From positions 400,905 through 464,904 of the forward strand of contig CAWCSR010000003.1 of assembly GCA_963798285.1 (NCBI GenBank): DNA of 64,000 bases. The letters are read 5' to 3'. Origin of the DNA: an uncultured Thermoleophilia bacterium (GTDB taxonomy: Bacteria > Actinomycetota > Thermoleophilia > UBA2241). Position 1 is the first letter of the stretch, and each line of letters begins with the position of its first letter. The position numbers were made by a program, and so were the translations under genes. Shown piece by piece: positions 2,986-63,208 of this stretch. The notes beneath the pieces were generated by a model. The model was given only the letters and a program-made list of their open reading frames with translations, searched no databases and was not told where the DNA came from.

Positions 2986-3016
2986 GCGCCGGGGGAGGGC
3001 GGAGAGGCGGCCAGAC

Positions 3017-3077: not shown

Positions 3078-3118
3078 CTCCGAACTGCATCGCCGGGGCG
3101 CCCCGCGCCGGTGATACG

Positions 3119-21609: not shown

Positions 21610-22065
21610 GTGACCGTCGCGGCCGCGTCGGGCTTCCTGACCGCCCGGAGCAGCCTCGGCGCCGACCTCTCGCTGATCGCGTCGGCGACGGTGATTGCGC
21701 TGCTCACCGCCGGGGTCGTGCTGGCACGACGGCAGCGCTACGACGCGCACCGCTGGACGCAGACCACGGCCGTGCTCCTCAACGCCGTCGTGGTCGCCAG
21801 CTGGATGGTCGTATCGCTCGTCCGGTTCATCCTGCCCGGCATCCCGGGCACCCTGAGCGAGCACGGGCACACGCTCGCCGCCGCCCACGCGGCCACCGGC
21901 GTCGTCGGCGTCGTGCTGGGCGTCTTCCTGGTCGTCCGCGCCACCCAGCTCACCAGTCGCGGTCAGAGCGTGCGTCGCTACCGGACGAGCATGCGCGTGT
22001 CGTACTTCGTCTATCTGGCCGCGTTCGCGCTCGGCGTCTCGCTATACGTGGTGACGTATGGGTGA
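21610..22065 (+). CDS. Small 4-TM membrane protein (DUF420-like by eye); first gene of the radical SAM operon
   Basis: GTG at 21610. It reads GFLTARSSLGADLSLIASATVIALLTAGVVLARRQRYDAHRW…. Its stop overlaps the next gene's ATG by 8 nt. The start is uncertain (see the mini-ORF finding). Confidence 0.5.
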   Translation: MTVAAASGFLTARSSLGADLSLIASATVIALLTAGVVLARRQRYDAHRWTQTTAVLLNAVVVASWMVVSLVRFILPGIPGTLSEHGHTLAAAHAATGVVGVVLGVFLVVRATQLTSRGQSVRRYRTSMRVSYFVYLAAFALGVSLYVVTYG

Positions 22066-23527: not shown

Positions 23528-23534
23528 GGCCGTC

Positions 23535-28558: not shown

Positions 28559-28662
28559 GAGCAATGCTTGCCCGCCGAGCCCGGGGCGTCAACGTTGACT
28601 GCTTCTTCGGCGACGCGACCGCAGGCTGCAGACGAGGCGCGAGGTGTGACAGTATCGCCACG

Positions 28663-37105: not shown

Positions 37106-37117
37106 CAGAAGGCGCGC

Positions 37118-40600: not shown

Positions 40601-41380
40601 TCAGGCGGTCGCGCCGCCGTCCACGACCATCGTGCGGCCGGTGACGAAGCTGCCGTCGTCGCTGGCGAGGAAGGCGACGGCCGCGGCGAGCTCCTCCGGC
40701 CGGCCGATCCGCCTGAGCGGGTACTCGTCCTCCATCCCCTCGGCGTAGGCGACGGGGTCGGGCGCCGCGGCGATGGCGTTCGCGAGCATCGGCGTGTCGA
40801 AGACCGCCGGGCTGACGCTGCACACGCGGATGCCGTCCGGCCCGTGGTCGATGGCCAGCGCGCGGGTCATCATCACGACGCCGGCCTTGGCGGCCGAGTA
40901 CACGGCCGCGCCCGGTTCGCCGTGGATACCCGAGTCGCTCGCCAGGTTGACGATGACTCCGGCGTGGCGCGGCGCCATGTGCCGCAGCGCCGCCTTGCAC
41001 ATGAAGTAGGTGCCCTTGAGGCAGGTACCGACGCACCACTCCCAGTCGGCCTCGCTGGTCTCGAGGATCGACTTCTCCAGCCACACGCCGGCCGAGTTGA
41101 CGAGGATGTCCAGGCGCCCATGCCGGGCGACCGTCTCGGCGACCAGACGATCACAGTCGGCCACCGAGCTCACGTCCCCGAGCACCACCGAGTGCTCGCT
41201 CGCGTGGCCGTTGGCGCGCGCTCTCGCGGTCGCCTGCTCGGCGACCACCGCCGCCTTCGCCGAGTCGCGGCCGCCGACCGCCACCGACACTCCCTCTTCC
41301 GCCAGCCGATGGACGATCGCCGCGCCGAGGCCGGATGAACCACCCGTGACCAAGGCGATCTTGTATGCCAATCCGCGCAT
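40601..41380 (-). CDS. Short-chain dehydrogenase/reductase (SDR)
   Basis: ATG at 41380 after GGAGAGGAG. TGGSSGLGAAI, NSAG, YSAAKAG catalytic Y-x3-K, and C-terminal VDGG. Confidence 0.9.
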   Translation of the reverse strand: MRGLAYKIALVTGGSSGLGAAIVHRLAEEGVSVAVGGRDSAKAAVVAEQATARARANGHASEHSVVLGDVSSVADCDRLVAETVARHGRLDILVNSAGVWLEKSILETSEADWEWCVGTCLKGTYFMCKAALRHMAPRHAGVIVNLASDSGIHGEPGAAVYSAAKAGVVMMTRALAIDHGPDGIRVCSVSPAVFDTPMLANAIAAAPDPVAYAEGMEDEYPLRRIGRPEELAAAVAFLASDDGSFVTGRTMVVDGGATA

Positions 41381-46896: not shown

Positions 46897-48375
46897 TCAG
46901 TGCGCCGGCGCGCCGCCGGCTGCGTCGGCGGTGTGTGCGCCGCGCGTGAGCGAGACGACGGCGCCGATCAGCGCAAGCGCGGCGCCGGTGAGCATGGCGT
47001 AGTGATAGCCGGACGCGTACGCCTCCACCGCGTGGGCGGCCACGGCGCCGCCCCCGCCTCCGCGTGTGAGCAGCAGGCGCCCACCCACCGCGCCCAGTTG
47101 GCTGGCCGCGATGCCGCCGAGCAGCGCGACACTGAGCGCCTGCCCGGAGGTGCGCATGGTGCTGAGGAAGGCGCTGGCCTGGCTCAGCTGGTCCCGCCTG
47201 ACGCTGCCCATGACGGCCGAGGTGTTGGGCGCGCTGAACGCCGCCATGCCCAGACCCACCACGACGAGAGCTCCGGCGACGTGCCACAGCGGCGCGGCGG
47301 CGCCGATGAGGGCAAGCAGCACCATCCCCCCCGCGATGGCCACCATGCCACCGGTGGCGAGCACCCGCGAGCCGATGCGGTCGCTCAAGCGGCCGCTGAA
47401 CGGACTGAGCGCGGCCATCAGCAGCGGCTGGCTCAGCAGGAGCCAGCCGCTCAGCGAAGCGGAACGGCCCTGGACGAGCTCGAGGAAGATAGCGGTCAGC
47501 AGGCCGATGCCGTACAGCGCCATGTAGTTCAGCAGGGCCGCGGTGTTCGCCGCGGCGAACAGCCGGTTCTTGAGGACGAGGTCGAGGTTGAGGATGGGAG
47601 ACTCGACGCGCCGTTCGTGGACCACGAACGCGATGAAGGACGCCACCGAGAGAGCCAGCAGGCCGAGGGTCGCCGGCGAGCCCCATCCCCACTGGACCGA
47701 GAACGTCAGCGGGACCAGCAGACAGATCAGGAAGGCCCCGAGCAGGAGAGAGCCGATCCAGTCCAGGCGGGGACCGCCCTCGCGCTCGCTGCGCGGCAGC
47801 ATGAACCAGCCCCAGAGCAGCACGATGATGCCGATCGGCAGGTTGATGAGGAAGATCCAGCGCCAGCCGACCGCGTCGGTGATGAAGCCGCCGAGCGGCG
47901 GGCCGACCGTCAGGCCGATGTACACGGCCATCACGTTGATGCCCAGGGCGCGACCGCGTTCGCTGGGCGGGAAGACCGCGGTGACGATCGCCGCCGACGT
48001 CGCGCCGATGAAGGCGGCTCCGGCCCCCTGGATGACGCGGGACACGATGAGCCAGGTGTCGTTCATGCTGACCGCGCACAGGAGGGAAGCGACCGTGAAC
48101 ACGGCGATGCCGAGCAGGTAGTAGCGCACGCGGCCGTGCTGGTCGGCGATGCGTCCGGCCGGGATGAGCAGGACGGCCGTCGTCAGCAGGAACGCGGCCG
48201 AGACCCACACCGCGGCCGTGAAGCTCAGATTCAGGTCCTTCCCCATGACGGGGAGGGCGACGCTGACGATGGAGCCGTCCAGCGGCCACATGAAGGCGCC
48301 GACCGAGGTCAGCGCCAGCAGCTGCCAGCGGCGCCGGTGCAGGTCTTCGTCGGTGATGCGCTTGATGAGGGCCAC
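46897..48375 (-). CDS. MFS transporter (DHA2/EmrB-QacA-like, 14 TMS)
   Basis: LPVMGKDLNLS, GRIADQHGRVRYYLLG and FPPSERGRALG motifs. It is a paralog of the frameshifted MFS gene at 7888. Confidence 0.85.
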   Translation of the reverse strand: MALIKRITDEDLHRRRWQLLALTSVGAFMWPLDGSIVSVALPVMGKDLNLSFTAAVWVSAAFLLTTAVLLIPAGRIADQHGRVRYYLLGIAVFTVASLLCAVSMNDTWLIVSRVIQGAGAAFIGATSAAIVTAVFPPSERGRALGINVMAVYIGLTVGPPLGGFITDAVGWRWIFLINLPIGIIVLLWGWFMLPRSEREGGPRLDWIGSLLLGAFLICLLVPLTFSVQWGWGSPATLGLLALSVASFIAFVVHERRVESPILNLDLVLKNRLFAAANTAALLNYMALYGIGLLTAIFLELVQGRSASLSGWLLLSQPLLMAALSPFSGRLSDRIGSRVLATGGMVAIAGGMVLLALIGAAAPLWHVAGALVVVGLGMAAFSAPNTSAVMGSVRRDQLSQASAFLSTMRTSGQALSVALLGGIAASQLGAVGGRLLLTRGGGGGAVAAHAVEAYASGYHYAMLTGAALALIGAVVSLTRGAHTADAAGGAPAH

Positions 48376-48394
48376 GGGTGCCGGGCGCTTCAGG

Positions 48395-49063
48395 TCAGGA
48401 GACCCAGGTCGCCAGCTCGTCGAGAGGGGCGCGCGAGCGCTCGAAGGTGTTGGCGGGAGCGTCGAGTTCCGGGTGGCCGAGGGTGACGGCGACGACCATG
48501 CGCTGCTCCTCGGAGCCGGGCAGCAACTGCCGCAGCAGGCCCGGGTAGCGGACCAGCGTGGTGGATTGGCAGGTGCCCAGGCCCTTGTCGTAGGCGGCGA
48601 GGCACACGTTCTGCACGAGCGACGCCGTGTCGTAGCTCGCGTACGCGGGGGCGAGGCAGTCCTCGAACCCGAACACGAGCAGGACGGGGGCGCCGAAGCA
48701 GTCGGCCGTGCGCGCCAGGGAGGCGGCCGGGCCGGAGGCTTCGCCGGCCGCTTCCATCGTCTCCGCGCGCGTCTTCATCAGCGCGACCGCGCGCGCCGAG
48801 CACGCCTGCGGCCAGTCACCGGTCTGGGTGCCCGACAGGTCGGAGGCGTCGTCCTCCTCGCGGGCGAGCGCGGCCTTGAACGCGGCCTTGAAGCGCTCCA
48901 GCGCCTCCCCGGTGACCACCCAGACACTCCAGGCCTGCGTGTTGCGCGACGAGGGCGCCCACCGCGCCTCATCGAGGATCTCGCGCACCAATTCCTGAGG
49001 GACCGGCTCCGTCGTATAGGCGCGGATACTCCGCCGCCCGCGAATGACGCTTTCCAATTCCAT
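48395..49063 (-). CDS. Nitroreductase-family FMN oxidoreductase
   Basis: IRGRRSIRAYTTEPVPQELVREILDEARWAPSSRNTQAWSVWVV. ATG after AAGGAGAG. Confidence 0.85.
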   Translation of the reverse strand: MELESVIRGRRSIRAYTTEPVPQELVREILDEARWAPSSRNTQAWSVWVVTGEALERFKAAFKAALAREEDDASDLSGTQTGDWPQACSARAVALMKTRAETMEAAGEASGPAASLARTADCFGAPVLLVFGFEDCLAPAYASYDTASLVQNVCLAAYDKGLGTCQSTTLVRYPGLLRQLLPGSEEQRMVVAVTLGHPELDAPANTFERSRAPLDELATWVS

Positions 49064-49143: not shown

Positions 49144-49788
49144 TCAGCGTAGCAGTGCTCGCACGACAGACAGGCCGCGCGAGGCGTCGTCACACCAGGC
49201 GTCCGCGCCGACCTGCTCGCTCGCCGTCTGGTCCACGGGAGCGCCGCCGATGACGATCGGCAGGCGTCGCTCCCAAGTCGACGTGCGCTCGCGCACGAGG
49301 GCGATGGTCTGCTTCATGCTGTCGTAGCCGGTGGTGAGCAGGGAGGACAGCCCCAGCACATCTGGGCGCTCACGTTCGACGACGTCGGCGATGTGCTCGG
49401 GGGTCACGTTCACTCCGAGGTCGACCATGTCGTAGCCCTCGGCGTCGAAGAGTGTGATGACGATGTTCTTGCCGATGTCGTGGATATCGCCTCGCACCGT
49501 GGCGATGACCATGCTGCGCTCCCGGGCAGCGTGTGCGGAAATCTCCCCGCGCGGCACGAGGATCTCGGCGGCCTCCCGGAAGATCTCGCCGGCCATGATG
49601 AGGGCGGAGATGAAGTACGTGCCCTTCTCATAGAGTTTGCCGACGCGCTCCATGCCCAAACGGCACTCAGCGAGGAGGGTCGCAGGATCCTCGTCCGCAT
49701 CGAGGCGGCGGCGGATGGCGGCGATCGCGCCGCGCTCGTCCATCCGCACGATGAGTTCGTCGAGAGCGTTCTCGGGTTTGGCCGTCAC
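49144..49788 (-). CDS. Corrinoid (B12-binding) protein, class B, co-transcribed with a GntR regulator
   Basis: GTG at 49788 lies 4 nt after the GntR stop, with AGGAG inside the GntR 3' end. Cap helix bundle (YFISALIMAGEIFREA). DxHxxG motif RGDIHDIGKN. …GLSSLLTT…IVIGGAP. Confidence 0.8.
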   Translation of the reverse strand: MTAKPENALDELIVRMDERGAIAAIRRRLDADEDPATLLAECRLGMERVGKLYEKGTYFISALIMAGEIFREAAEILVPRGEISAHAARERSMVIATVRGDIHDIGKNIVITLFDAEGYDMVDLGVNVTPEHIADVVERERPDVLGLSSLLTTGYDSMKQTIALVRERTSTWERRLPIVIGGAPVDQTASEQVGADAWCDDASRGLSVVRALLR

Positions 49789-49792
49789 CGGG

Positions 49793-50561
49793 TCAACTCC
49801 TCTTCTCCCCGGAACCGACGAGGCCGACGGTGGTCGACAATCTCAGGCGATCGGCGCGACCGACGAAGCGGCCCCAGCTCTCCGGGCGCTCCTCGAAATC
49901 GTAGAAGAGGTGCTCGAGGACCCACGCCGCGATGCCCGGCTGCTCGTTCAGATACGCGGCCTCTGCCTCCGTGAAGGCGGACGCATGCAGGGTCAGACGA
50001 CCGTACTTGATGTCCGAGCCCCATCGCTCCGGAGAAGAGATCCTGCAGCGCAGTGACGCCGAGCTCGGCCTCGACGAGGGGCCGAGCGGGATCGAAGACC
50101 AGGTACTCGCTGTGGTAGAAGAGCGGCTCATCCCCGCGCCTGAGCAGCCGCTTGATGGAGATGACGCGGTCGTCCTCCCCGACCTCGAGCTTCTCGCGTA
50201 CCCGGACAGACGGCGAGACGATGCGCGCCTCGATGATGTGCGCCTCGATGTCCGGGTCGGCCAGATACTCCTGCAATTCGCTGAGGTCGAAGAGCGCGGT
50301 GCTGAGCTGCGGCACTTTGACGAACGTCCCGCGACCGTGTTCCGTGACGGCGACGTCCTCACGCACGAGCTCGGCGATCGCCCGCCTCACGGTCATCGGG
50401 CTGACGCCATAGGCGGCGCAGAGTTCGGCCTCGGACGGCAAGCGGTCGCCCGGCCGATACTCCCCGCGGGCGATGCTCTCGCGGATGCTCCGCGCGAGCT
50501 GGGCATAAGGCGGCTCGAACGATTCCCTGTCGATAGCAGCGGTCTGTTTCACGCCGCCCAT
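49793..50561 (-). pseudogene. GntR/HutC-family regulator (wHTH + UTRA), one frameshift near 50035-50045
   Basis: PYAQLARSIRESIARGEYRPGDRLPSEAELCAAYGVSPMTVRRAIAELV. After …GVTALQDLFSG a second frame continues ERWGSDIKYGRLTLHASAFTEAEAAYLNEQPGIAAWVLEHLFYDF…. This aligns with the intact paralog at 56896. Confidence 0.8.
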
Positions 50562-50582
50562 TCTAGCACTTCCCTACTTCCC

Positions 50583-50611
50583 TAGACCAGTGGGGAACTT
50601 GGCGTTATACT
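50583..50611 (+). promoter_or_regulatory. Sigma-70-like promoter candidate TAGACC-17-TATACT for the corrinoid/URO-D operon
   Basis: -35 at 50583-50588, 17-nt spacer, -10 at 50606-50611, about 85 nt upstream of the ATG at 50696. It overlaps an ACTTCCCT x2 direct repeat (50568-50583) and a CTAGACCAGT half-palindrome. Confidence 0.4.
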
Positions 50612-50695
50612 GGCTGTCGCACAGTCAGGGGGCCGCTGCCGGACGACTTGCGGCGCAGCGGCGAATGAGTCTCGTACCATCAGGGAGGCGCAGAG

Positions 50696-51333
50696 ATGTC
50701 ACAGGAGTTGACCGACGCCATCGTCGGCATGCGCGAGGAGGAGGCCCTCGGCCTCGTCCAGAGCATGCTCGAGGCCGGCATAGATCCGAAGACCGTGCTC
50801 GACCAAGCCAAGGACGCGATGACCGAGCTCGGGCGCCGCTTCGAGTGCGAAGAGGCGTTCATCCCCGAGCTCATCATGGGCGGCGAGATCATGAAGAACA
50901 TCGCCGAAGAGCTGAAGCCGCACCTCAAGGGCGAGGCCGAGGAGGCCAAGCGCGGCACCATCGTCATCGGCACCGTGCAGGGCGACATCCACGACATCGG
51001 CAAGGACATCGTCGTGATGATGCTCGGCATCAACGGCTACGAGGTGCACGATCTCGGGCGTCGACGTGCCCGCGGACAAGTTCATCAGCGAGATCCGAGA
51101 GAGCGGCGCGCAGGTCGTCGGCCTGAGCGGCCTGCTCACCCTGGCCTTCGACTCGATGAAGGCCACCGTCGATGCCATCGCCGCCGCCGGCCTGCGCGAC
51201 CAGGTCAAGATCATGGTCGGCGGGGCGCCGGCGGACGAGCAGGTCGCAGGGCTACACCGGCGCCGACGGCTGGGGCAACGACGTGTCGGTGGCCCTCAAG
51301 CTGGCGGCCGAGTGGACGGGAGGTGCGTCATGA
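50696..51333 (+). pseudogene. Corrinoid (B12-binding) protein, class A, with two +1 frameshifts (GGG at 51056-51058 and 51249-51251)
   Basis: AFIPELIMGGEIM. GDIHDIGKD. After …YEVHDLG the next frame gives VDVPADKFISEI…GLSGLLT…IMVGGAPADEQVAG. A third frame gives YTGADGWGNDVSVALKLAAEWTGGAS*. This is colinear with the intact paralog at 56087-56719. Confidence 0.8.
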
Positions 51334-52586
51334 CGCCGACCGGCGAGGAGCTCTACGCGCAGCGCGAAGGGCGGTTCAACGACATCGTCGCGCTCAGGAA
51401 GCCCGACCACATCCCGGTCATCGGGCACACGATCCACTACTTCGCCGACCTCTGGAAGGGTCACTCCCAGAAGGAGGCGGGCTACAACCACCCGCAGCAC
51501 TATGAGGCCATCAGGGCCGCCACCGTCGAGTTCGGGTGGGAGTTCGAGCCCACCAACGCGCTGTTCGCCGCCGACGGCTATGAGGCGCTCGGCATCAAGC
51601 AGTTGCGCTGGCCCGGCGGCGACTTGCCCGACGACGTCGGCTTCCAGTTCGTCGAGGGCGAGTACATGAAGGCCGACGAGTACGAAGAGTTCCTGGCCGA
51701 CCCCAACGGCTTCACGCTCCGCAAGATCTTCCCGCGCATCGCCGACAATCTTGCGGGGTTCGAGCAGGTGCCGATCCCGCCCCTCTATTTCATGGCAAAC
51801 ACCTACTACCTGCTCAACGTCGGCGGCCCACTGCTGGGCGCGCCGCCGTTGCGCAAGGCCATGGAGAGCCTGCTGGCGATGTCCGACGCCGTAGGGGCGT
51901 ATTTTGCGGCGGATGCGGCCAGCGCACAGGAGATGGCCGCGCTCGGCTACCCGCGCACGTGGGGAGCGCCTATCGTCCCGGCGTTCGATGTGGTCTCAGA
52001 CATGCTCCGCTCGCTGCGCGGAAGCACGCTGGACATGTACCGCCATCCTGATCAACTGCTCGCCACCATCGATCGCATTCAAGAGGCTCAGATCGGCCTG
52101 GCGATGATGGTCATGAAGGTCACCGGCAATCCGCGCGTCTTCATCCCCATGCATCGCGGGGCCGGCGGCTTCATGAGCGACGAGCAGTTCGAGAAGTTCT
52201 ACTGGCCCACGTTCAAGGCTCTCGTGATGGCCATCATCGACGCCGGCGGCGTGCCGTGTCCTCTCTTCGAGGGTGACTACACGCCGCGTCTCAAGTACCT
52301 CGCCGAGTTCCCGCCCGGCACGATCGCCGGCCACTTCGACAAGATCGACCGAAAGAAATTCAAGGAGATCCTCGGCGACAAGATGTGCTTCTGGGGCAAC
52401 GTGCCGGTCTCGCTCCTGTGCACCGGCACGCCGCGGCAGGTGAAAGACGACGTCAGGGAGCTCATCGAACTGTTCGGCGACACCGGCGCGCTGATCCTCG
52501 ACTCTGGCCTGGGCGTCCCAGACGAGGCGAAGCCGGAGAACCTGCATGCGATGCGCGAGGCAGCGGACGAGTACGGGGTCTTCTGA
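51330..52586 (+). CDS. URO-D/MtaA-family methyltransferase-like protein (418 aa)
   Basis: ATGA overlap with the corrinoid A stop. C-terminal block FWGNVPVSLLCTGTPRQVKDDVRELIELFGDTGALILDSGLGVPDEAKPENLHAMREAADEYG is typical of the uroporphyrinogen-decarboxylase/MtaA fold. Confidence 0.7.
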   Translation: MTPTGEELYAQREGRFNDIVALRKPDHIPVIGHTIHYFADLWKGHSQKEAGYNHPQHYEAIRAATVEFGWEFEPTNALFAADGYEALGIKQLRWPGGDLPDDVGFQFVEGEYMKADEYEEFLADPNGFTLRKIFPRIADNLAGFEQVPIPPLYFMANTYYLLNVGGPLLGAPPLRKAMESLLAMSDAVGAYFAADAASAQEMAALGYPRTWGAPIVPAFDVVSDMLRSLRGSTLDMYRHPDQLLATIDRIQEAQIGLAMMVMKVTGNPRVFIPMHRGAGGFMSDEQFEKFYWPTFKALVMAIIDAGGVPCPLFEGDYTPRLKYLAEFPPGTIAGHFDKIDRKKFKEILGDKMCFWGNVPVSLLCTGTPRQVKDDVRELIELFGDTGALILDSGLGVPDEAKPENLHAMREAADEYGVF

Positions 52587-52627
52587 CGACGGCGGAGGCC
52601 ATCGCCGGGACTCAGGAGAGCAGCAAA

Positions 52628-52667
52628 CAGGAGGGCGCCGTGCAAAGGAGTGCACGGCGCCCTCCTG
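52628..52667 (+). terminator. Perfect 17-bp stem with AAGGAG loop between the URO-D-like and DUF1638 genes (intra-locus terminator or processing hairpin)
   Basis: caggagggcgccgtgca-aaggag-tgcacggcgccctcctg, 42 nt after the stop and 44 nt before the next ATG. No U-tract. Confidence 0.5.
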
Positions 52668-52710
52668 CTACCATGACGTCCGAGCAGAACACCGCGACCC
52701 TCGGGGACAC

Positions 52711-53469
52711 ATGACAATGGACGACCAGCCCAAGGCACCCAGGCCCGGCCTTGGCGGGCTCAAGCTCATCGCCTGCCCGGCCGTCATCGGCGAACTCGCC
52801 GACGGCGCCACTCAGGGCGTCGACTGCCACGAGCTCGAGGCACAACTGCACGTGAGCCCGGAGCGGCTCAAGGAGGCGCTCCGGGTCGCCGTCGCCGAGG
52901 CCGACGCACCCGGCGCGACGATCGTGCTCGGCTACGGCCTCTGCTCCAATTCCGTCCTCGGCCTCAAGACCGAGCGAGCGACCCTCGTCGTCCCCAGGGT
53001 GGATGACTGCATCGCGATGATGCTTGGGTCGAACGAGGCGTTCTCCGCTGAGTCCGAGAAGGCGCGCGGCAGCTACTACGTCGCCAAGGCGTATCTGGAA
53101 GAATGCGACACGATCATGAGTGAGCACGACAAGCTGGTGGAGAAGCGCGGCCGCGAGCGCGCCGAGCAGATGATGCGCCTGCTGCTCAAGCACTACACAC
53201 GCATCGTGCTCATCGACACCGGCCGCTACGACATGGAGCCGCACCGGGCACGGGTCGCCGGCTTCGCCGAGACCTTCGACCTGGCGGTCGAGGAGATCCC
53301 GGGAACGACGCGGATCCTCGATGCGCTCGTGGCGGAGGAGTGGGGTGACGACTTCGTCGTCGCCCCGCCGGGCCACGAGCTCACGCTCCGGGACTTCCGC
53401 CCCGAGCTCTTCTCGGGCGAGGCCTCCGCCCCGCCGGCCGCCGCGTCGCCGAGCGACGGGCCGGCGTGA
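52711..53469 (+). CDS. DUF1638-like protein
   Basis: LKLIACPAVIGEL…IVLGYGLCSNSVLGL…LVVPRVDDCIAMMLGS…GSYYVAKAY…. This layout is what I recall for DUF1638, a family found beside corrinoid methyltransferase genes. Confidence 0.55.
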   Translation: MTMDDQPKAPRPGLGGLKLIACPAVIGELADGATQGVDCHELEAQLHVSPERLKEALRVAVAEADAPGATIVLGYGLCSNSVLGLKTERATLVVPRVDDCIAMMLGSNEAFSAESEKARGSYYVAKAYLEECDTIMSEHDKLVEKRGRERAEQMMRLLLKHYTRIVLIDTGRYDMEPHRARVAGFAETFDLAVEEIPGTTRILDALVAEEWGDDFVVAPPGHELTLRDFRPELFSGEASAPPAAASPSDGPA

Positions 53470-54053
53470 ACATCCTCTGCATCGCCGGCTTTCTCGGATC
53501 CGGCAAGACCACCGTGTTGCTCGAGGTCGCGCGCGCGATGACCGAAGCGGGCTGGCGGCTCGCCGTCATCGAGAACGAGATCGGCGAGATCGGAGTGGAC
53601 GGCGGCTACGTGCGCGAGCAGGGCCTGCCGGTGCAGGAGCTCTTCGGCGGCTGCATCTGCTGCACCCTGCAATCCGGGCTGGTGGAGACCCTGCGGACCG
53701 TCGAGAGCCGCTACAGCCCGGACTGGGTGCTGATCGAACCCACGGGGCTGGCCGCCCCGGCCGACCTGCTGGGCGTCGTCGTCGACAATTGCCCCGACAT
53801 CGACATGATCCGGGTACTCACACTCGTCGACGCCGCTCGCTGGCCGATGCTCCTGGAGGTCGTCGAGCCACTCGTCACGGCCCAGCTCGAAGCCGCCGAC
53901 ATCGTCGCCGTCAACAAGGTCGACGAGGTCGACGACGAGGCACTGGCGGCCGTCATGAAGAGCGTTCGCGCGCTCGCCGGCAAGGCGACGGTGCTGCGGG
54001 CCTCCGCCGCCACGGGCGCCGGCATGAAGCGCCTCCTCGGAGCCTTCGTCTGA
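53466..54053 (+). CDS. CobW/HypB/UreG-type (G3E family) P-loop GTPase, short form
   Basis: GTGA overlap with the upstream gene. GFLGSGKTT P-loop. GCICCT metal-binding-type motif. LIEPTGLA. VNKVD (NKxD). Confidence 0.8.
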   Translation: MNILCIAGFLGSGKTTVLLEVARAMTEAGWRLAVIENEIGEIGVDGGYVREQGLPVQELFGGCICCTLQSGLVETLRTVESRYSPDWVLIEPTGLAAPADLLGVVVDNCPDIDMIRVLTLVDAARWPMLLEVVEPLVTAQLEAADIVAVNKVDEVDDEALAAVMKSVRALAGKATVLRASAATGAGMKRLLGAFV

Positions 54054-54472
54054 TGAGCACGCACGAGGCCGGCGGTCACGACCACCTCCGGCTCCTCGGC
54101 GACAACGCCCAGCCGGCCGTGTTCGCGGCCCGGGCCGACGTCGTGTTCTCGCCGCCGGCGCGAGCCGACCAGGTCGAGGTGGCCGTCACGCGCTTCTTCA
54201 CCGCCCTCTCCGGCGGCCTGGCCGACGCCGGCTGCACGCTGGTCGGCCACGTCAAGGGAACGCTTGCGGCTCACGGCTACGGAGACCTCGGGTTCCACGC
54301 CACCGCGCTCGCGGTGCCCCCCCTTCTGACGGGCGGCATCGCCGGCGACGCCCGGGAGGCCGTGCTCACCGTGAACGTCATCGTCTTCGGCGTGCCGGAC
54401 GGAGACCTGCCCGCCATCGTCACCGAAGCCTGGTCCCGAGCCACCGGCACGCAGGCGGTCTGGCGTCGCTGA
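54053..54472 (+). CDS. Hypothetical 139-aa protein translationally coupled to the CobW-like GTPase
   Basis: ATG overlaps the TGA of the upstream gene (TGATG). No recognisable motif. N-terminus is His-rich (MSTHEAGGHDH). Confidence 0.45.
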   Translation: MSTHEAGGHDHLRLLGDNAQPAVFAARADVVFSPPARADQVEVAVTRFFTALSGGLADAGCTLVGHVKGTLAAHGYGDLGFHATALAVPPLLTGGIAGDAREAVLTVNVIVFGVPDGDLPAIVTEAWSRATGTQAVWRR

Positions 54473-54741
54473 ACGGATGCTGCCGAGTACCTGGGCTTGG
54501 GCGCACGGCGAGGCACCTCCGGAGTACGGCGTCCTGATCCGCTCGCGCAGGGTCCTCGGCCGGGCAGAGCTGCCCCAACCTGGCCGGCCCGGCCTTCTTC
54601 CTCGCTCGCTCCACAGCGACTTCATGACCTGCCAGACCCGGTGGACGGCGGCGGCATGTGGTGACGCCGACGGCGGAGGCCCTTGTGGACCCCCGCCATC
54701 GGCGCTCACGGACCCGAGTGGTGGGCCCGGCCCTCAGTGCA

Positions 54742-56094
54742 TCAGATCTGCGCCCCGTACTTCTTGCCGGCGTCGATCATCGCCTTCATGCAGTCGGCCT
54801 TGGCTTGGTCGATCACGATGCCCGAGCCGAGGATGAAGCCGCCGGGACCGGCGACGTCCTCGATGAGCTGGCGCACGTAGTCGTCCATTTCCTGCGGCGT
54901 GCCGGTCGTGATGAGCGCGCCGGGCACGTTGCCGCCGAAGCACTGGTAGCCGCCGAGATGCTTGCGCGCCTCACTCATGTCCGTGGCGTCGAACATCCAG
55001 ATCATCTTGCCCGCCGGGATCTCGAGATCATGGATGGCCTCGAGACGCTCGTTGTACCCTCCCTCGGCGAAGATGAGCGGCACGATGCCCTCCTCGATGA
55101 GTCCGAGGAGGACCTTCTTGAACGTCGGCCAGTAGAAGGTGCGGAAATCCTCGTCCGAGAGGAACCCGTCAGCGCCCTTGTGCAGCGGGATGAACACCAT
55201 CGGATGCTTGTTGACATCGCAGGCGCGTACCCCCCAGTCAATCGCCAACGGCACCAGCCGCTCGCAGGCCTCGAGGACCTTCTCGGGACGACGGAACTTG
55301 TCGAGCATGAGCCCACGAGTGCCGCGGAGGGTGTCGCCGAGGATGTCATACGGCGCCTTGGTAGCGCCGCCGGCGAAGCCCGGCATGCCGTAGGTGGCGA
55401 GCGCCTTGCCGTCCATCGCACCGGCGGCCTGGATCCACTCGAGCGCCAACCTGCCCGCCTCGAGGAGCTTCTTGAACATCTCCTGCACTGGGGGCGTGCC
55501 GAACGGAATGAAGAACGGGCCCGTCAGGGGAGCTTCCACGAGGTCGGTGAACGGCGAGAGCATCGTCCACGGTTCCATGGCTCCGAAGATCCGCGGGAGG
55601 TAGAAGCGCTGCCAGAAGTTGGAGGGGTCGGCGATGAGGAGGTCGTACTCATCGGCGTGCATCCACTCCTTCTCAACGTACTGGTAGCCGGCGGTATCCG
55701 GTACCCCGTGGCCGGGCCAGTCGTAGAGTTTGTAGTCGAGAACGTCGAAGATCTCGCAGGGAGCGATGTTGATGGAGAAGGCGAGTACATCCTGCTTGAA
55801 CTCGGCGTGCCACTTCTGCCAGGCGACGTCGAGGCGCGCGAAGTCGTAGTAGGCCTCGCGCGCTGTCATGCCGTCCCACAGCGCCGGGAACAGCCCGATC
55901 CAGGGCGCGATCGGCACCCGCTGGGGCTTCTTGAGCTGGACCGCGTCACGGAACAGCTGCACACGATCCTGGTACTGCTTCTTGACGTCTGCGGACGCGA
56001 ACTCGACGTCGGGGTTCTGCCACACGTCCATGCGGACCTTGAAGCGTTCGTCAGGCGTCAGATCGTTCCAGTTGTCGGCGAACACGTCATTCAC
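54742..56094 (-). CDS. URO-D/MtaA-family methyltransferase-like protein, paralog 2 (450 aa)
   Basis: GTG at 56094 overlaps the corrinoid A' stop by 8 nt. FIPLHKGADGFLSDEDFRTFYWPTFKKVL… and CFGGNVPGALITTGTPQEMDDYVRQLIEDVAGPGGFILGSGIV… are colinear with the gene at 51330. Confidence 0.7.
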   Translation of the reverse strand: MNDVFADNWNDLTPDERFKVRMDVWQNPDVEFASADVKKQYQDRVQLFRDAVQLKKPQRVPIAPWIGLFPALWDGMTAREAYYDFARLDVAWQKWHAEFKQDVLAFSINIAPCEIFDVLDYKLYDWPGHGVPDTAGYQYVEKEWMHADEYDLLIADPSNFWQRFYLPRIFGAMEPWTMLSPFTDLVEAPLTGPFFIPFGTPPVQEMFKKLLEAGRLALEWIQAAGAMDGKALATYGMPGFAGGATKAPYDILGDTLRGTRGLMLDKFRRPEKVLEACERLVPLAIDWGVRACDVNKHPMVFIPLHKGADGFLSDEDFRTFYWPTFKKVLLGLIEEGIVPLIFAEGGYNERLEAIHDLEIPAGKMIWMFDATDMSEARKHLGGYQCFGGNVPGALITTGTPQEMDDYVRQLIEDVAGPGGFILGSGIVIDQAKADCMKAMIDAGKKYGAQI

Positions 56095-56719
56095 CCCCCG
56101 TCCACTGCCTGGCGAGATCGACGGCCGCCACGGCATCTTTGCCAAAGCCGTCCGCGCCGGTGTACGCAACGATCTGCTCGGTGATCGGCGCACCGCCGAT
56201 CATCAGCTTCACGTCGCCACGCATGCCGGCGGCGCCGGCCTCAGTGACCAGGCGTTTCATCGCCTCGATCGCGCTCGTGAGCAGGCAGCTCATGGCGATG
56301 ATCTGCGCCTTCTTCTCGCGCGCTGTCTCGAGGAACGCAGCCACCTTGACGTCGACGCCCAGATTGACGACGTCGAACCCGGCGAGGTCGAGCATCGTCG
56401 CGACGATGTCCTTGCCGATGTCGTGAATGTCACCCTCGATGGTGCCGATGACCACGACGCCGAGCTTCTCCTCGGCCGGCACGCTCGCAAGGTGCGGCTT
56501 GAGCTTGGCGGAAATGCCGGTCATGATCTCGCCGGCCATGATCAGTTCGGGAATGAAGGCCTCGCCGCAGGCGAAGCGCTCCCCGATCGTATCCATCGCG
56601 CGCTTGCAGTCGCTGAGGATGCCGACCGGATCGGCCCCCTCCCCCAGCAGGCGATCGACGATGGCCAGAGCGTCGTCTTCCCGAAGGTCGACCACCGCCT
56701 GGATCAGCTCTTCTGCCAC
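56087..56719 (-). CDS. Corrinoid (B12-binding) protein, class A (intact copy)
   Basis: AFIPELIMAGEIM cap. GDIHDIGKD (DxHxxG). MSCLLTS. LMIGGAP. Ends YTGADGFGKDAVAAVDLARQWTGGE. SD AAAGGAGGAAA. Confidence 0.85.
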   Translation of the reverse strand: MAEELIQAVVDLREDDALAIVDRLLGEGADPVGILSDCKRAMDTIGERFACGEAFIPELIMAGEIMTGISAKLKPHLASVPAEEKLGVVVIGTIEGDIHDIGKDIVATMLDLAGFDVVNLGVDVKVAAFLETAREKKAQIIAMSCLLTSAIEAMKRLVTEAGAAGMRGDVKLMIGGAPITEQIVAYTGADGFGKDAVAAVDLARQWTGGE

Positions 56720-56787
56720 TTTTCCTCCTTTGCGTCGTGCACTTCTGGAATGTGCGCCGCGTCGCCTTTGCGGCCGATTGAGTCAGC

Positions 56788-56816
56788 TTGCCAGCGCCTA
56801 GGACATAATGTATAGG
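56788..56816 (+). promoter_or_regulatory. Sigma-70-like promoter candidate TTGCCA-17-TATAGG in an unusually AT-rich patch
   Basis: -35 at 56788-56793, -10 at 56811-16. The spacer carries the palindrome ACAT-A-ATGT. GTGCAC hexamers flank it at about 56735 and about 56835. Confidence 0.4.
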
Positions 56817-56895
56817 TATTTCCTCGGGAGGCAAGTGCACGCATGGCTGCTGCTAGCATCCGGCCGTGAGGGACACGACGGAAGGCGCCCGGCAA

Positions 56896-57678
56896 ATGGC
56901 GACTATCCCCGCGGGTCGGGGCATCGACAGAGCGTCCTACGAGCCTGCTTACATCCAGCTCGTCAACATCCTGCGGGGCGCCATCGCCAGCGGTCAGTAC
57001 CAGGCCGGCGACCAGCTCCCCACGGAGTCGGAGCTCTGTTCCGCCTACGACGTGAGCCCGATGACGGTGCGCCGCGCCATCGGCATGCTGCTCGATCAGG
57101 GTGCGGTCACCACCACGAGAGGGCGCGGCACGTTCGTGCAGCCGCTGCGCCTCGCCACGGCCACGTTCGACCTCAGCGAGTTCCACGACATCCTGGCCGA
57201 GCCCGGCGTGACCGCCAAGGTAGTCGAGGCGCGCGTGCTGCCCGCCGGTCCGCGCGCCGCCGCCAACCTCGGCGTCCCGGACGGCACCCACGTGGTCTCC
57301 ATCCGCCGCATCCTGCAGCGCGGCGACGAGCCGCTGATCTACCATCGCGAGTCGCTCATCTACGACCCCACGCGCCCGACCATCGAGTCCGAGCTCGACG
57401 TCACCGCCCTGCGCGACATGTTCGAGGGCGGCGTCGGTTCGGGCCCCAAGCGCGGCGAGCTCATCCTCCACGCCTCCGTCCTCACCGAGGAGGAGGCCGG
57501 CCGCCTCACGCTGCCGGCAGGCGGCGCCGCCTGGGTGCTCGAGCACATCTTCTACGGCTACGACGAGCGACCGATCAGCTGGGGCTGCTTCATCTGCCGC
57601 GGCGAGCTGTTCTCGTTCCGCGCCAGTGTGGGCGCCTCGGCGCCCGAGGGCGACAGCGCGAGGAGGAACCGCACATGA
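56896..57678 (+). CDS. GntR/HutC-family regulator (wHTH + UTRA), intact copy
   Basis: MATIPAGRGIDRASYEPAYIQLVNILRGAIASGQYQAGDQLPTESELCSAYDVSPMTVRRAIGMLL. The start is chosen by alignment with the paralog; GTG 56866 is also open. Confidence 0.85.
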   Translation: MATIPAGRGIDRASYEPAYIQLVNILRGAIASGQYQAGDQLPTESELCSAYDVSPMTVRRAIGMLLDQGAVTTTRGRGTFVQPLRLATATFDLSEFHDILAEPGVTAKVVEARVLPAGPRAAANLGVPDGTHVVSIRRILQRGDEPLIYHRESLIYDPTRPTIESELDVTALRDMFEGGVGSGPKRGELILHASVLTEEEAGRLTLPAGGAAWVLEHIFYGYDERPISWGCFICRGELFSFRASVGASAPEGDSARRNRT

Positions 57679-58340
57679 CCGAGTTCGAGGGGCTCGACCC
57701 CGCATCGCTCGCCGCACGCATCGCCGCCCTGGACGAGCAGGGCGCGCTCGACGCGGTCGGCGCACGCATCGCCGCCGGAGACGACCCACTGGTGATCATC
57801 GAGGAGTGCCAGCTCGGCATGCGCTGGGTCGGGGAGCACTATCAGACGGGCAAGTACTTCATCTCCGGCCTCATCATGGCCGGCGAGATCTTCCGCGAGG
57901 CCATGGTCGACCTCGGGCCGCTGCTTCCCGAGGAGACCCCCGAGGCCGGACAGGGCACGGTGCTGCTCTGCACCGTCCGCGGCGACATCCACGACCTGGG
58001 CAAGAACATCGTCACCATGATGCTGCGCTCCTACGGGATCATCGTGCACGACCTGGGAGTGGACGTCTCGCCCGACGAGGTCGTGCGCAAGGCCGTGGAG
58101 CTCAAGCCGGACATCGTCGGCCTCTCCGGCCTCCTGACCGTCGCCACCGACGGCATGAAGGCGACGGTCCAGGCGGTGCGCGACGGAGAGAAGCAGATCG
58201 GCCGCCGCCTGCCGGTCATCATCGGCGGCGGCATCGTCGACGAGCAGACCCGCACCTGGACGGGCGCCGACCTCTGGGCCAACGACGCTTCGCGCGGCGT
58301 GAAGCTCATCCGCGAGCAGATCGCGGCGGCCCGCTTCTGA
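57675..58340 (+). CDS. Corrinoid (B12-binding) protein, class B (intact copy), translationally coupled to GntR
   Basis: ATGA overlap with the GntR stop. AGGAGGAA lies 6 nt upstream. YFISGLIMAGEIFREA. RGDIHDLGKN. GLSGLLTV. VIIGGG. Confidence 0.85.
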   Translation: MTEFEGLDPASLAARIAALDEQGALDAVGARIAAGDDPLVIIEECQLGMRWVGEHYQTGKYFISGLIMAGEIFREAMVDLGPLLPEETPEAGQGTVLLCTVRGDIHDLGKNIVTMMLRSYGIIVHDLGVDVSPDEVVRKAVELKPDIVGLSGLLTVATDGMKATVQAVRDGEKQIGRRLPVIIGGGIVDEQTRTWTGADLWANDASRGVKLIREQIAAARF

Positions 58341-58472: not shown

Positions 58473-60659
<2,187 letters not shown>

Positions 60660-60670
<11 letters not shown>

Positions 60671-61707
60671 TGTCCTGAGCGCGGCGCTGGCGGAGCTGAC
60701 CGCCGGGCGCGACCTCACGCAGGAGGACGCGCGCGCCGTCCTGCTCGAGATCATGGGCGGCCGGGCCGACGGAGGCGCAGACGGCCGCCTTCCTCAGCGC
60801 CCTGCGCGTCAAGGGAGAGACGGCCGAGGAGATCGTCGGCATGGCGCACGCGATGAGCGAGCTGGCCGAGAAGGTCGACGTGGACGCCGACGTGATCCTC
60901 GACACCTGCGGGACCGGCGGCGACCGCGCCGGCACCTTCAACATCTCGACGGCGGCCGCGCTCGTGGCCGCCGGCGCCGGCGTCACCGTCGCCAAGCACG
61001 GCAATCGCTCGGCGACGAGCAAGTGCGGCAGCGCCGACGTGCTCGAGGCGCTCGGCGTGGTCATCGACCTCGCCCCCGAGCACGTGAGCCGCTGCATCGC
61101 CACGTGCGGCATCGGCTTCATGTATGCGCCTCGCCACCACCTGGCCATGAAGTACGTCGCGCCGGTGCGCCGCGAGCTCGGCATGGCGACCACGTTCAAC
61201 CTCATCGGACCGCTGACCAACCCCGCGGGAGCGCGGCACCAGCTCATCGGCGTCGCCGACGCCCGCTACGTCGACCGCATCGCCCAGGCGGTGCGGCTGA
61301 TGGGCAACGCACGCAACCTCATCGTGCACAGCGCCGACGGCCTGGATGAGATCTCGACCACCTGCCCCACCAGCGTGGTCGAGGTGTTCGCCGGTCAGGG
61401 GTACGACGAGCGGTACGAGGTCACGCCGGAGCAGTTCGGGATGGCGCCGGCGCGGCTGGAAGACCTCGCCGGCGGCGACGCGGCAGAGAACGCGGACCTT
61501 CTCCGCGCCGTGGTCGACGGCGAGCCGGGTCCCAAGCTGGACATCGTCCTGCTCAACGCCGGCGCGGCGCTCTACATCGCCGAGGCCGCCGTCAGCATCG
61601 CCGACGGCGTGGAGAAGGCGCGGGCGGCCGTCGCCTCCGGCGCTGCCCGCACCAAGCTTGACCTTCTCGTCGCCATCACCCGCCGGCTGGCGCAGGAGAC
61701 GGCGTGA
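60660..61707 (+). pseudogene. trpD: Anthranilate phosphoribosyltransferase with one +1 frameshift near 60765-60775
   Basis: N-terminus reads …LTQEDARAVLLEIMGGRA. The next frame continues (T/D)EAQTAAFLSALRVKGETAEEIVGMAHAM…DTCGTGGD…KHGNRS…. Confidence 0.85.
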
Positions 61708-62549
61708 GCCGCGCCGGCGCACCCCACGGACCGGCGCCGGCCGGGTTCCTCGCCGAGATGGTCGCCGGCTCACGCCGGCGCGCCGCCTCGGCGCGCTCCG
61801 CCGGCCGCCTCGTCAGGCCGAAGCAGGTCGGCGAACCCGGGCGGCTGCGCGACGCGCTGGCGCGCCCCTCCCGTATCCCCGGCGCGCCCAGCCCGCAGCT
61901 CGCCGTCATCGCCGAGGTCAAGCGCCGCTCGCCCAGCAAGGGCGACATCGCGCCGGACCTCGACGCCGTCGCGCAGGCCCGCGCCTACGAGGCGGCGGGC
62001 GCGGACGCGATCTCGGTGCTCACGGAGCCCACGTACTTCGGCGGCTCGCTCGACGACCTGCGCCACGTGGCCGCGGCGGTGGACCTCCCGGTGCTGCGCA
62101 AGGACTTCATCGTCGACCGCGGGCAGATCTGGGAGGCCGCGGAGGCCGGCGCCGCCGCCATCCTCCTCATCGTCGGCATCCTCGACGACGATCGCCTCCA
62201 CGACCTCTTGATCGAGTCCCTGGACTGCGGCCTCGACCCCCTCGTGGAGGTGCACGACCTGAACGAGACGCGCCGCGCCTGCAAGGCAGGTTGTACGCTT
62301 GTCGGCATCAACAACCGTGACCTGGTGACCATGGAGGTCGACATCGAGACCACAGAGTACCTCGCCCCCGCACTCGGACCGTGCATGTTCCCGGTCAGCG
62401 AGAGCGGCATCTCCTCCCCGGCCGACGCCTGCCGCGCCGCCCTCGCCGGCGCGCGCGCCCTCTTGGTGGGCGAGACGCTGGTCCGCACGCCTCCCAAGGA
62501 CCTGGCCGCCGTCATCGGCCGCCTGAAGGATCCGGGGTGGCCGACATGA
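61704..62549 (+). CDS. trpC: Indole-3-glycerol-phosphate synthase
   Basis: VIAEVKRRSPSKG, ISVLTEPTYFGGS, LRKDFIVD, GINNRDL and ESGI blocks. GTGA overlap with trpD. Confidence 0.9.
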   Translation: MSRAGAPHGPAPAGFLAEMVAGSRRRAASARSAGRLVRPKQVGEPGRLRDALARPSRIPGAPSPQLAVIAEVKRRSPSKGDIAPDLDAVAQARAYEAAGADAISVLTEPTYFGGSLDDLRHVAAAVDLPVLRKDFIVDRGQIWEAAEAGAAAILLIVGILDDDRLHDLLIESLDCGLDPLVEVHDLNETRRACKAGCTLVGINNRDLVTMEVDIETTEYLAPALGPCMFPVSESGISSPADACRAALAGARALLVGETLVRTPPKDLAAVIGRLKDPGWPT

Positions 62550-63208
62550 CCCGCGTCAAGGTCTGCGGCCTGACGCGCGTCGAGGACGTCCGCCTCGCGG
62601 CGGAGCTCGGCGCGTGGGCCGTCGGATTCGTGCTCGCGGAGAGCCCGCGGCACGTCGTCCCTGCCCAGGCCCGCAAGCTCGCAGCAGCGGCCGGCGACGC
62701 CATCACGGTCGCCGTCGTGACCACCCAGACCGCGGCGTGGATCGCCGGCGCCGTGGCCACCGCCGGACTCGCAGCCGTGCAACTCTCGGCCGGGGCCGAC
62801 GGCCCGTCCGTCGCCGACGTGCGCGCCGCCGCGGCCGAAGCCGGCGTCGAGCCGCTCGTGATCGCCGCCGCGGACACCCCCGACGTCGAGCTCGCCGACT
62901 TCGTGCTGCTCGACGCCCGGGCGCCGGGCAACTACGGCGGCACCGGCCGGCGGCTCGACTGGGAGCGCCTCGCCGCCGACCCCGAGACGCCGAGTCACGA
63001 CCTCGTCCTCGCCGGCGGGCTCACGCCGGCCACCGTCAAGGCGGCGATCGCCACCCTCCGCCCGGCCGTCGTCGACGTCTCCGGCGGCGTGGAGTGGGTG
63101 CCGGGCATCAAGGACGCCAAGCGACTGCGTGACTTCTTCGCCGCCGTGGAAAAGGCGGACAAGCAAGCCGCGGCGGACGACGAAGCAGCGAGAAAGGACG
63201 CCGAGTGA
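62546..63208 (+). CDS. trpF: Phosphoribosylanthranilate isomerase
   Basis: [12 protein letters not shown]…GFVLAESPR…LLDA…GGTG…LAGGL…[12 protein letters not shown] overlap with trpC. Confidence 0.85.

Follow-up and report, generated by a model that had tools for sequence, protein, structure and literature searches.

What does a bacterium do with four corrinoid proteins, two enzymes resembling uroporphyrinogen decarboxylase (URO-D) and two GntR regulators encoded side by side? The question is raised by positions 49144–58340 of a 64,000-nucleotide (nt) stretch (the window; GC content ~70%) of contig CAWCSR010000003.1 from an uncultured Thermoleophilia bacterium. Two modules face each other there as mirror images, and in each of them a HutC-type GntR gene, followed by the gene for a corrinoid protein of class B, is divergent from the gene for a corrinoid protein of class A, followed by that for a URO-D-like enzyme. 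A first-pass annotation, made from the sequence alone, had described this arrangement and interpreted it as a non-canonical system; the observation was confirmed with corrections, but the interpretation was supported only in part. On balance, we favor the view that the locus consists of two old copies of a multi-phylum cassette for B12-dependent demethylation, with the class-B protein serving as a partner of the regulator or the cofactor. The enzymes belong to a known type, and relatives account for their "missing partners"; what is conserved but previously undescribed is a corrinoid protein coupled to a regulator and accompanied by DUF1638.

Two classes of corrinoid protein and their gene partners

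The gene map was based on a listing of the open reading frames (ORFs), screening of the GC content at third codon positions (GC3) and tblastn comparisons between the paralogues, and these analyses, together with the translations, placed all eight module genes where the first-pass annotation had them. In module 1, corrinoid protein B1 (class B, 214 amino acids; 49144–49788, minus strand) starts 4 nt past the stop codon of GntR1 (49793–50561, minus strand), across a gap rather than an overlap, whereas corrinoid protein A1 (class A, ~211 amino acids once corrected for frameshifts; 50696–51335, plus strand) overlaps the gene for UROD1 (418 amino acids; 51330–52586, plus strand) by 4 nt, with the UROD1 ATG lying on the A1 stop codon (ATGA). 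In module 2, GntR2 (56866–57678, plus strand) and corrinoid protein B2 (class B, 221 amino acids; 57675–58340, plus strand) overlap by 4 nt in the same way (ATGA), and corrinoid protein A2 (class A, 210 amino acids; 56087–56719, minus strand) overlaps UROD2 (450 amino acids; 54742–56094, minus strand) by 8 nt. Each enzyme gene therefore overlaps its cognate corrinoid gene, and co-translation within the gene pairs is plausible, judging from the overlapping or nearly touching start and stop codons. The eight genes were correct, but the first-pass inventory had missed three genes between the modules, which encode a DUF1638 protein, a CobW-like GTPase and a 139-amino-acid ORF; likewise, its account of the layout was right, but it had overlooked three +1 frameshifts in module 1.

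All four B12 proteins, with A1 in its corrected form, consist of a cap (B12-binding_2, PF02607) and a Rossmann B12-binding domain (PF02310) with the DxHxxG motif. The motifs on which the first-pass annotation had based its two classes (GDIHD[IL]GK in all, AFIPELIM[GA]GEIM in class A and YFIS[AG]LIMAGEIFREA in class B) are present in the translations, and the tail motif of A1 is present too, but can be read only by switching frame. Against TIGR02370, the class A proteins gave E-values of e-47 and the class B proteins e-35 to e-38, with all scores under the curated cut-off of 215 bits. The top PDB matches for both classes were 4jgi and 1y80; A2 matched 4jgi, the corrinoid protein of a D. hafniense O-demethylase, at 2.5e-40, and the class-B profile matched it at 1.5e-54.

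A scan with the class-B alignment, taking one genome per species, yielded 80 loci, which were annotated by tblastn (loci of relatives are cited by L numbers, single database proteins by P numbers). A neighbor-joining tree was built from 111 B12 proteins taken across all loci; in it, 21 proteins, including B1, formed a class-B clade (bootstrap 42/60) whose members were all adjacent to a GntR gene and never to a URO-D gene; the Fisher p-value for the association of the clade with GntR adjacency (5e-19) is inflated by ascertainment and relatedness, but the pattern itself is clear. The clade includes sequences from Actinomycetota, Chloroflexota, Bacillota, Desulfobacterota, and Syntrophorhabdales, and four further GntR-adjacent B12 proteins fall outside it. 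Of the loci checked, four have GntR and B genes that overlap start to stop by 1–8 nt, and in L052 the two genes are separated by 1 nt. Class A genes behave differently. Across the collected loci, 40 of 121 B12 genes were directly upstream of a URO-D gene, and wherever a pterin-binding methyltransferase II (MT II) was present, class A was always placed between MT II and methyltransferase I (MT I), as in L010, L015, L021, and L052, whereas genes of the class-B clade never occupied this position. Because of this placement, and because its gene overlaps the MT I start, we read class A as the methyl carrier. The two sequence classes and their strict pairing, A with URO-D and B with GntR, which the first-pass annotation had noted within the window, are conserved far beyond the source genome, in at least five phyla. 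We found no description of the pairing of GntR with corrinoid protein B in the literature; one paper remarks that GntR regulators often lie near mttB and B12-protein genes in Eubacterium.

Twenty-three loci carried a GntR–B pair, and their ORFs were clustered all-against-all. URO-D was present in 19 of these loci, DUF1638 in 11, MT II (Pterin_bind, PF00809) in nine, and a RACo activase (PF14574, PF17651, and Fer2) in two (L010 and L028), and the pair loci also carried Liv-type ABC, TRAP, MFS, or APC transporters. A GntR gene followed directly by a B gene was found in Actinomycetota, Chloroflexota, Syntrophomonadaceae, Syntrophorhabdales, and Desulfobacterota, and the pair was usually divergent from an A-then-URO-D pair. 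Among its carriers are the cultured Desulfosarcina variabilis (L043), of the Desulfobacterota, and Desulfosporosinus sp. HMP52 (L028). L052 (Clostridia) also has a GntR–B12 pair, in which the B12 protein falls outside the class-B clade.

Among the closer relatives, L001 and L002 (UROD2 at 92% identity) carry only A, URO-D, and DUF1638 at the same site, with no GntR or class B, and L004 (UROD2 at 74%) carries the full mirror there (GntR–B, A–UROD–UROD, DUF1638–hydrolase–UROD–A, and GntR–B). A divergent four-gene unit lies next to trpE in L005–L008 (UROD1 at 59–60% in L005, L006, and L008; UROD2 at 74% in L007), with B2 identities of 71–85%. B2 orthologues at 85% identity occur in many Thermoleophilia metagenome-assembled genomes, and the GntR2 orthologues of L005–L009 are 81–93% identical. 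L005, L006, and L008 carry a divergent enzyme gene of the UROD1 type, in place of the UROD2 type, opposite GntR2 and B2 orthologues that remain highly conserved (92% and 85%). L009 has no class-A gene, and URO-D itself is the immediate divergent neighbor of its GntR and class-B genes.

URO-D-like enzymes and their partner enzymes

UROD1 and UROD2 match PF01208 (UROD1 at 2.2e-16) in the C-terminal half only. The sole strong PDB sequence match of both proteins was CdmB (9rui), with E-values of 3.6e-31 for UROD2 as a single sequence, 1.9e-23 for UROD1, and 1.7e-49 for the UROD2 family profile, and this match was also restricted to the C-terminal half. In the profile search, HemE reached only 5e-6 and MtaA was not matched, so the URO-D-like proteins do not group with HemE, in agreement with the first-pass annotation. 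CdmB is the chloromethane:corrinoid MT I of Acetobacterium dehalogenans; it has been assigned to the UroD superfamily alongside the O-demethylases MtvB, OdmB, VdmB, and MtoB, and its structure contains no zinc (PMC13222342). The AlphaFold2 model of UROD2 (predicted local distance difference test [pLDDT] score 90.9) has the UroD/MtaA barrel with ~100 additional residues, and Foldseek aligned it to UroD/MtaA structures with template modeling (TM) scores of 0.65–0.73, in a library that apparently did not include CdmB. The zinc site of MtaA and MtbA has the form H-x-C...C. The motifs that had been read as replacing this site (MHRGAGG/LHKGADG and GLGVP/GSGIV) are present in the translations, and the proposed lack of a zinc/thiolate site holds: the 20-sequence URO-D family alignment (A3) contains no invariant cysteine, and CdmB, the nearest solved relative, is zinc-free. 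Because of the CdmB match, the UroD fold, and the lack of an invariant cysteine, we read UROD1 and UROD2 as probable substrate-side MT I enzymes of the UroD superfamily, of the CdmB/MtvB/OdmB/MtoB type, and as neither HemE nor MtaA. UROD2 has more than 5000 homologues of ~447 amino acids, with ~55% identity across phyla (Natroniella, Frackibacter, Thermoflexales, and Planctomycetota), and no characterized member of this family was found.

The pterin-binding MT II, MttB, and RACo were searched for with tblastn, using the proteins of relatives, and by Pfam and by eye on the other ORFs, and none was found in the 64 kb or, in the close relatives L004–L008, within 10 kb. The absence of MT II, MttB-type, and RACo/RamA genes noted in the first-pass annotation therefore extends to the entire window, which does not hold a complete three-component system (MT I, corrinoid protein, MT II, and activase). 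However, its conclusions that the substrate methyltransferase is missing and that the locus has no canonical partner enzymes did not survive the comparison: the URO-D-like proteins are themselves probable MT I enzymes of the CdmB type, and the homologous cassette includes MT II in nine of the 23 pair loci and RACo in two. Because MT II and activase occur in the cassettes of relatives, the chemistry appears canonical and the acceptor is probably tetrahydrofolate. By analogy with these relatives, the genes for MT II and the activase presumably lie at other sites in the genome, and tetrahydrofolate, reached through them, is the most likely methyl acceptor. The catalytic core is ordinary, with MT I and class A encoded here and MT II, the activase, and tetrahydrofolate as presumed further parts. 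In this scheme, UROD1 and UROD2 would take a methyl group from a small organic substrate and load it onto the Co(I) of the class-A corrinoid protein; the methyl group would then pass to tetrahydrofolate via the pterin-binding MT II, and oxidized Co(II) would be rescued by the RACo/RamA-type activase. From the nearby transporters, we infer a carboxylate or amino-acid-like substrate.

Of the known systems, CdmBCA of A. dehalogenans, MtvABC, OdmABD, Vdm, and MtoABCD share with the window a zinc-free UroD MT I beside a cap-plus-Rossmann corrinoid protein, and the pterin-binding MT II and RACo-type activase in the cassettes of relatives add to this likeness. However, the similarity to CdmB is distant, and the window lacks MT II and activase and carries in addition a HutC repressor, a class-B corrinoid protein, DUF1638, and a CobW-like GTPase, in a host that is a Thermoleophilia-like high-GC actinobacterium and not an acetogen or methanogen. 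The split methionine synthase and MtgBCD of Phaeobacter and Ruegeria likewise include a stand-alone corrinoid protein linked to DUF1638, with the partner methyltransferases and activase dispersed, in non-acetogenic, probably aerobic bacteria; their MT I, however, is of the MttB type rather than the UroD type, no pair of GntR with a second corrinoid protein has been described, and no CobW-like gene has been reported (PMC5764234, PMC12478193).

Regulators, DUF1638, and the role of the class-B protein

The corrected GntR1 matches PF00392 and PF07702; for GntR2, the NCBIfam matches are GntR models of the HutC/PhnF type. Between the divergent genes of module 2, the operator-like element ACATAATGTATAGGTAT (56803–56819) is the sole conserved island across six orthologous intergenic regions (consensus ACATAATGTATAGrTAT, core ATAATGTATAGrTA, then ~14 nt and GCAAG), and its counterpart in L003 is a perfect HutC-type palindrome, TGTCTAGACA. 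In module 1, sequence inspection and a promoter scan delimited a divergent control region (50568–50611), in which ACTTCCCTACTTCCCTAGACCAGT, an AT-rich operator-like element (50568–50591), and a promoter-like site directed toward B12-A1 (TAGACC-17-TATACT) overlap. This operator-like element differs from that of module 2 and is common to the window and L004, where the GntR1-type gene is preceded by a related sequence, ACTTCTCTAGGGAAGT. By their GntR winged helix-turn-helix and UTRA domains and a predicted operator of the GT-N-TA-N-AC type, GntR1 and GntR2 can be assigned to the HutC subfamily. The HutC-type repressor from the divergent operon would act on an AT-rich operator that is conserved and overlaps the promoters. 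The UTRA residues that are invariant across the 17 GntR sequences compared, which come from several phyla and include both GntR1 and GntR2, comprise among others R148, H160, D167, E174, E226, and H227, a lead that may fit a common effector rather than the differing substrates of the MT I enzymes. No riboswitch or other RNA was matched in Rfam at the gathering score across the whole window.

The system also includes the three genes between the modules. The DUF1638 protein (52711–53469, plus strand) matches PF07796 at 2.9e-40 (138.2 bits against a gathering cut-off of 27) and has five invariant residues, C23, C79, C101, H48, and H162, in the numbering of the 253-residue translation that starts at 52708 and forms the first row of alignment A5 (minus one from the ATG at 52711). 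These three cysteines and two histidines are a possible metal site. Its AlphaFold2 model is of good quality by its scores (pLDDT 89.7; predicted TM score 0.82), and Foldseek found no significant structural relative in the PDB (best E = 0.012, TM ~0.2); a sequence search of the PDB was empty, and no match was found among annotated plasmids. In Phaeobacter, the split B12 methionine synthase requires DUF1638, which co-occurs with RamA-like proteins and, in Ruegeria, is co-induced with RamA; these published data link DUF1638 genetically to both proteins without giving it a function (PMC5764234, PMC12478193).

The start of the short CobW/G3E (COG0523-like) GTPase (195 amino acids; 53466–54053, plus strand; PF02492 at 1.7e-40) overlaps the DUF1638 stop codon. 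Its best NCBIfam model is CobW_rel_Se (NF041053, CobW-related selenoprotein), at 118.7 bits and below the cut-off of 180; the protein has a cysteine in its GCICC motif, and its PDB match is YjiA at 6e-15. It resembles the G3E GTPases (CobW, YjiA/ZigA, and MeaB) in having the cobW nucleotide-binding domain with GCICC, but lacks their usual C-terminal domain and is followed by the separate 139-amino-acid ORF (54053–54472, plus strand), which overlaps the CobW stop codon by 1 nt. This ORF has no Pfam or NCBIfam match and is weakly similar to its positional counterparts behind CobW in L052 (8e-4) and L048 (0.07); it may replace the C-terminal domain that the short GTPase lacks. The DUF1638 protein, with its three invariant cysteines, is a candidate client of the GTPase. 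Fused cobW–DUF1638 gene calls also occur in the database (P0408, P0443, and P0480), and may be indel read-throughs.

The 150 best-scoring representatives of the class-B profile search included P0334, a clean natural fusion between DUF1638 and a corrinoid protein with the class-B-like cap motif EYFLSEL. Its operon, present in L088 (6600–9416) and L089 (2995–5811), consists of GntR, a corrinoid protein, and the DUF1638–corrinoid fusion; tblastn located no URO-D gene within 8 kb, and the called genes included no methyltransferase family. This operon is a natural "Rosetta stone" tying DUF1638 to corrinoid proteins. L012 and L016 resemble the L088/L089 unit, B and DUF1638 overlap start to stop in L016 and L052, and in L052 the chain continues with CobW and the small ORF. 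GntR, a corrinoid protein, and DUF1638 thus form a separable unit that also exists without a nearby methyltransferase.

What, then, is the role of class B? Encoded in the same operon as the repressor, it would probably not be the main methyl carrier, but would belong to the separable unit of GntR, B, and DUF1638, sometimes extended by the CobW-like GTPase and the small protein. There it would be the corrinoid-based signal or cofactor-status partner of the repressor or, alternatively, a member of a cofactor loading and repair set with DUF1638 and CobW. We therefore infer that class B is a regulator-linked or cofactor-maintenance corrinoid protein, and we tentatively assign it the role of a regulator-linked sensor or co-factor. 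A more specific version, with class B as the sensing subunit of the HutC repressor and DUF1638 possibly acting on class B, is doubtful. If it is true, the transcription of demethylase operons would respond to the occupancy, redox, or methylation state of protein-bound B12, by a form of B12-based control that would be unrelated to riboswitches, CarH, or AerR, would occur in at least five phyla, and in some genomes would stand alone, with no methyltransferase gene adjacent. CarH/LitR and AerR–CrtJ similarly couple a B12-binding protein to a DNA-binding regulator, with AerR acting as a stand-alone repressor partner; here, however, the partner is of the HutC/UTRA type, not the MerR or CrtJ type, the interaction is a predicted one, and class B is far nearer to the catalytic corrinoid proteins than to the signaling type. 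The bundle motif of CarH is W-x9-E-H. A CarH-like W..EH motif was considered and rejected: B2 has WVGEH, but B1 and the distant class-B members lack it, and no W...EH motif is conserved in the class-B clade.

Several observations weigh against the explanation that we favor. At strict thresholds, only two positions separate the classes, the Arg of EIFR and the Trp of GAD-x-W, and there is no clear functional signature. Judged by its sequence, class B is an ordinary methyltransferase-type corrinoid protein (4jgi at 1.5e-54), remote from AerR (1e-5) and CarH (2.7e-4 to 1e-7). The only apparent UTRA–B12 fusion among the top 150 representatives, P0242, was rejected as a natural fusion because it is an indel read-through with out-of-frame stretches. 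A repressor is commonly the first gene of a catabolic operon, and the adjacency or overlap of GntR and class B is therefore no proof of a physical or regulatory link. Module 1, with its three frameshifts, may be non-functional, class B may be the carrier in L009, and MT II and the activase are nowhere in the window DNA.

In a rival explanation, class B is a second (basal or alternative) methyl carrier for URO-D or for another methyltransferase encoded elsewhere, and shares a transcript with the repressor only because the latter is the first gene of the operon. This explanation accounts for L009, where URO-D, GntR, and class B occur without class A, for the retention of the DxHxxG, S-x-L, and GG corrinoid signatures in a protein closest to 4jgi, and for the GntR-adjacent corrinoid proteins of L020, L028, and L041, which lie outside the class-B clade and directly beside MT II genes. 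We nevertheless consider it rather unlikely. A simple second-carrier role is disfavored because genes of the class-B clade, unlike those of class A, never lie between MT II and MT I, because GntR, a corrinoid protein, and DUF1638 occur without a nearby methyltransferase in L088 and L012, and because L001 and L002 manage without class B; the conservation of GntR2 and B2 in L005, L006, and L008 across the switch of their divergent partner also speaks against it. Class B, DUF1638, the CobW-like GTPase, and the small ORF could instead form a set that serves the catalytic corrinoid protein in corrinoid loading, processing, or repair, on the model of MeaB and ATR for the B12 mutases, with GntR as only a regulator. 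The fusion P0334 with its class-B-like cap, the overlapping B–DUF1638 chains of L016 and L052, the published requirement for DUF1638 in the Phaeobacter methionine synthase and its link to RamA in Ruegeria (PMC5764234, PMC12478193), and the three invariant cysteines of DUF1638 next to a metallochaperone-type GTPase gene are all consistent with such a set, but many class-B loci (L005–L009, L013, L017, and L021) have no DUF1638 within 10 kb, DUF1638 occurs with class A and URO-D alone in L001 and L002, and its model has no structural relative; we consider this explanation improbable. Least credible, and in our view very improbable, is the original interpretation of a non-canonical system without MT II, substrate methyltransferase, or activase, in which two corrinoid proteins form a relay to a new acceptor. 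It fits the absence of MT II, MttB, and RACo from the window and from the surroundings of the cassette in L004–L008, but the URO-D-like enzymes are themselves the probable substrate methyltransferases, the homologous cassettes of other phyla contain MT II and RACo, and corrinoid systems with dispersed genes are documented in Ruegeria and Phaeobacter.

Corrinoid methyltransferase systems are textbook knowledge in acetogens and methanogens and have only recently been recognized in aerobic or soil heterotrophs; Thermoleophilia-like actinobacteria are abundant in soils. The locus puts UroD-type demethylases of two specificities, belonging to a family of more than 5000 uncharacterized proteins, into such an actinobacterium. 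It also presents a recurrent accessory set for which we found no explanation in the literature: the HutC repressor, the second corrinoid protein, DUF1638, and the CobW-like GTPase with its small partner. Solving this set would give DUF1638 a function, a problem that dates from fitness data of 2018, and could reveal a new B12-status sensing or cofactor-chaperone system for methyltransferase corrinoid proteins.

Age and integrity of the modules, and neighboring genes

The identities between the paralogues of the two modules are 50% for GntR, 45% for B, 52% for A, and 35% for URO-D, and at the DNA level only patches of 70–76% similarity are left. A recent inverted duplication was rejected because no more than these patches remain; judged by this divergence, the mirror layout appears to be old, with two anciently diverged copies of the cassette.

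Three frameshifts interrupt module 1. GntR1 has a +1 frameshift at ~50024, caused by an extra G in ATGGGGCTC, with the tblastn frame change at 50014–50021, and B12-A1 has two, with an extra G at 51053 in CTCGGGCGTC and at 51246 in GCAGGGCTAC, so that tblastn divides it into three segments across three frames. Each of them is an additional G within a G-run preceding a C. At least three further frameshifts lie outside module 1, at ~8650 (plus strand), ~35250 (minus strand), and ~41770 (minus strand), for a total of at least six in the 64 kb; these affect an MFS transporter, a secreted-protein-like ORF, and a metallo-beta-lactamase-fold gene upstream of a short-chain dehydrogenase/reductase (SDR) gene, respectively. 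Such a number suggests assembly indel errors or many pseudogenes. Because genes are also broken elsewhere in the window and in the closest relatives, whose assemblies are of long-read style, the frameshifts are likely to be assembly indels. The local excess in module 1, with three in 1.3 kb, may nevertheless reflect real decay. Programmed frameshifting was rejected because other genes in the window are also broken, which leaves assembly indels or decay as the realistic causes. In L004 (14081–17414), three of four module-1-like genes are disrupted (a GntR of 201 amino acids, a frameshifted B, and a URO-D of 371 amino acids) while module 2 is intact, so that the damaged module is the same in L004 and the window.

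The cassette is flanked by a trpE-G-D-C-F operon (58473–63208) and a nitroreductase–MFS–MMPL block (46897–49063). L001, L004, L005, and L007 keep the trp and nitroreductase–MFS flanks while the cassette content between them varies, and the site between these flanks is a hotspot of gain and loss. In L007 (731–2878, minus strand), a corrinoid module (B12-binding_2 plus B12-binding) is fused to an APC-type amino-acid permease; the fusion is flanked by MttB-family genes (1–701 and 2919–4382) and lies a few kilobases from the GntR–B/A–UROD cassette.

Elsewhere in the window, a Rieske [2Fe-2S]–ferredoxin-reductase-type flavoprotein fusion (PF00355 and PF07992; 19834–21465, minus strand) is unrelated to the cassette and is not a RACo-type activase. 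Three B12-binding radical S-adenosylmethionine (SAM) proteins (PF02310 and PF04055) are encoded at 22055–23527 (plus strand), 25621–27132 (plus strand), and 27230–28588 (minus strand), in a cluster that includes a large membrane protein without a Pfam match (23352–24899) and represents a second, unrelated B12-dependent set. A beta-keto acid cleavage enzyme (BKACE; 37106–37945, plus strand), a class-III aminotransferase (38024–39400, minus strand), and an SDR (40604–41380, minus strand) follow. A BKACE gene also adjoins a B12/URO-D pair in L003, and a metabolic link between BKACE and the demethylase substrate is possible.

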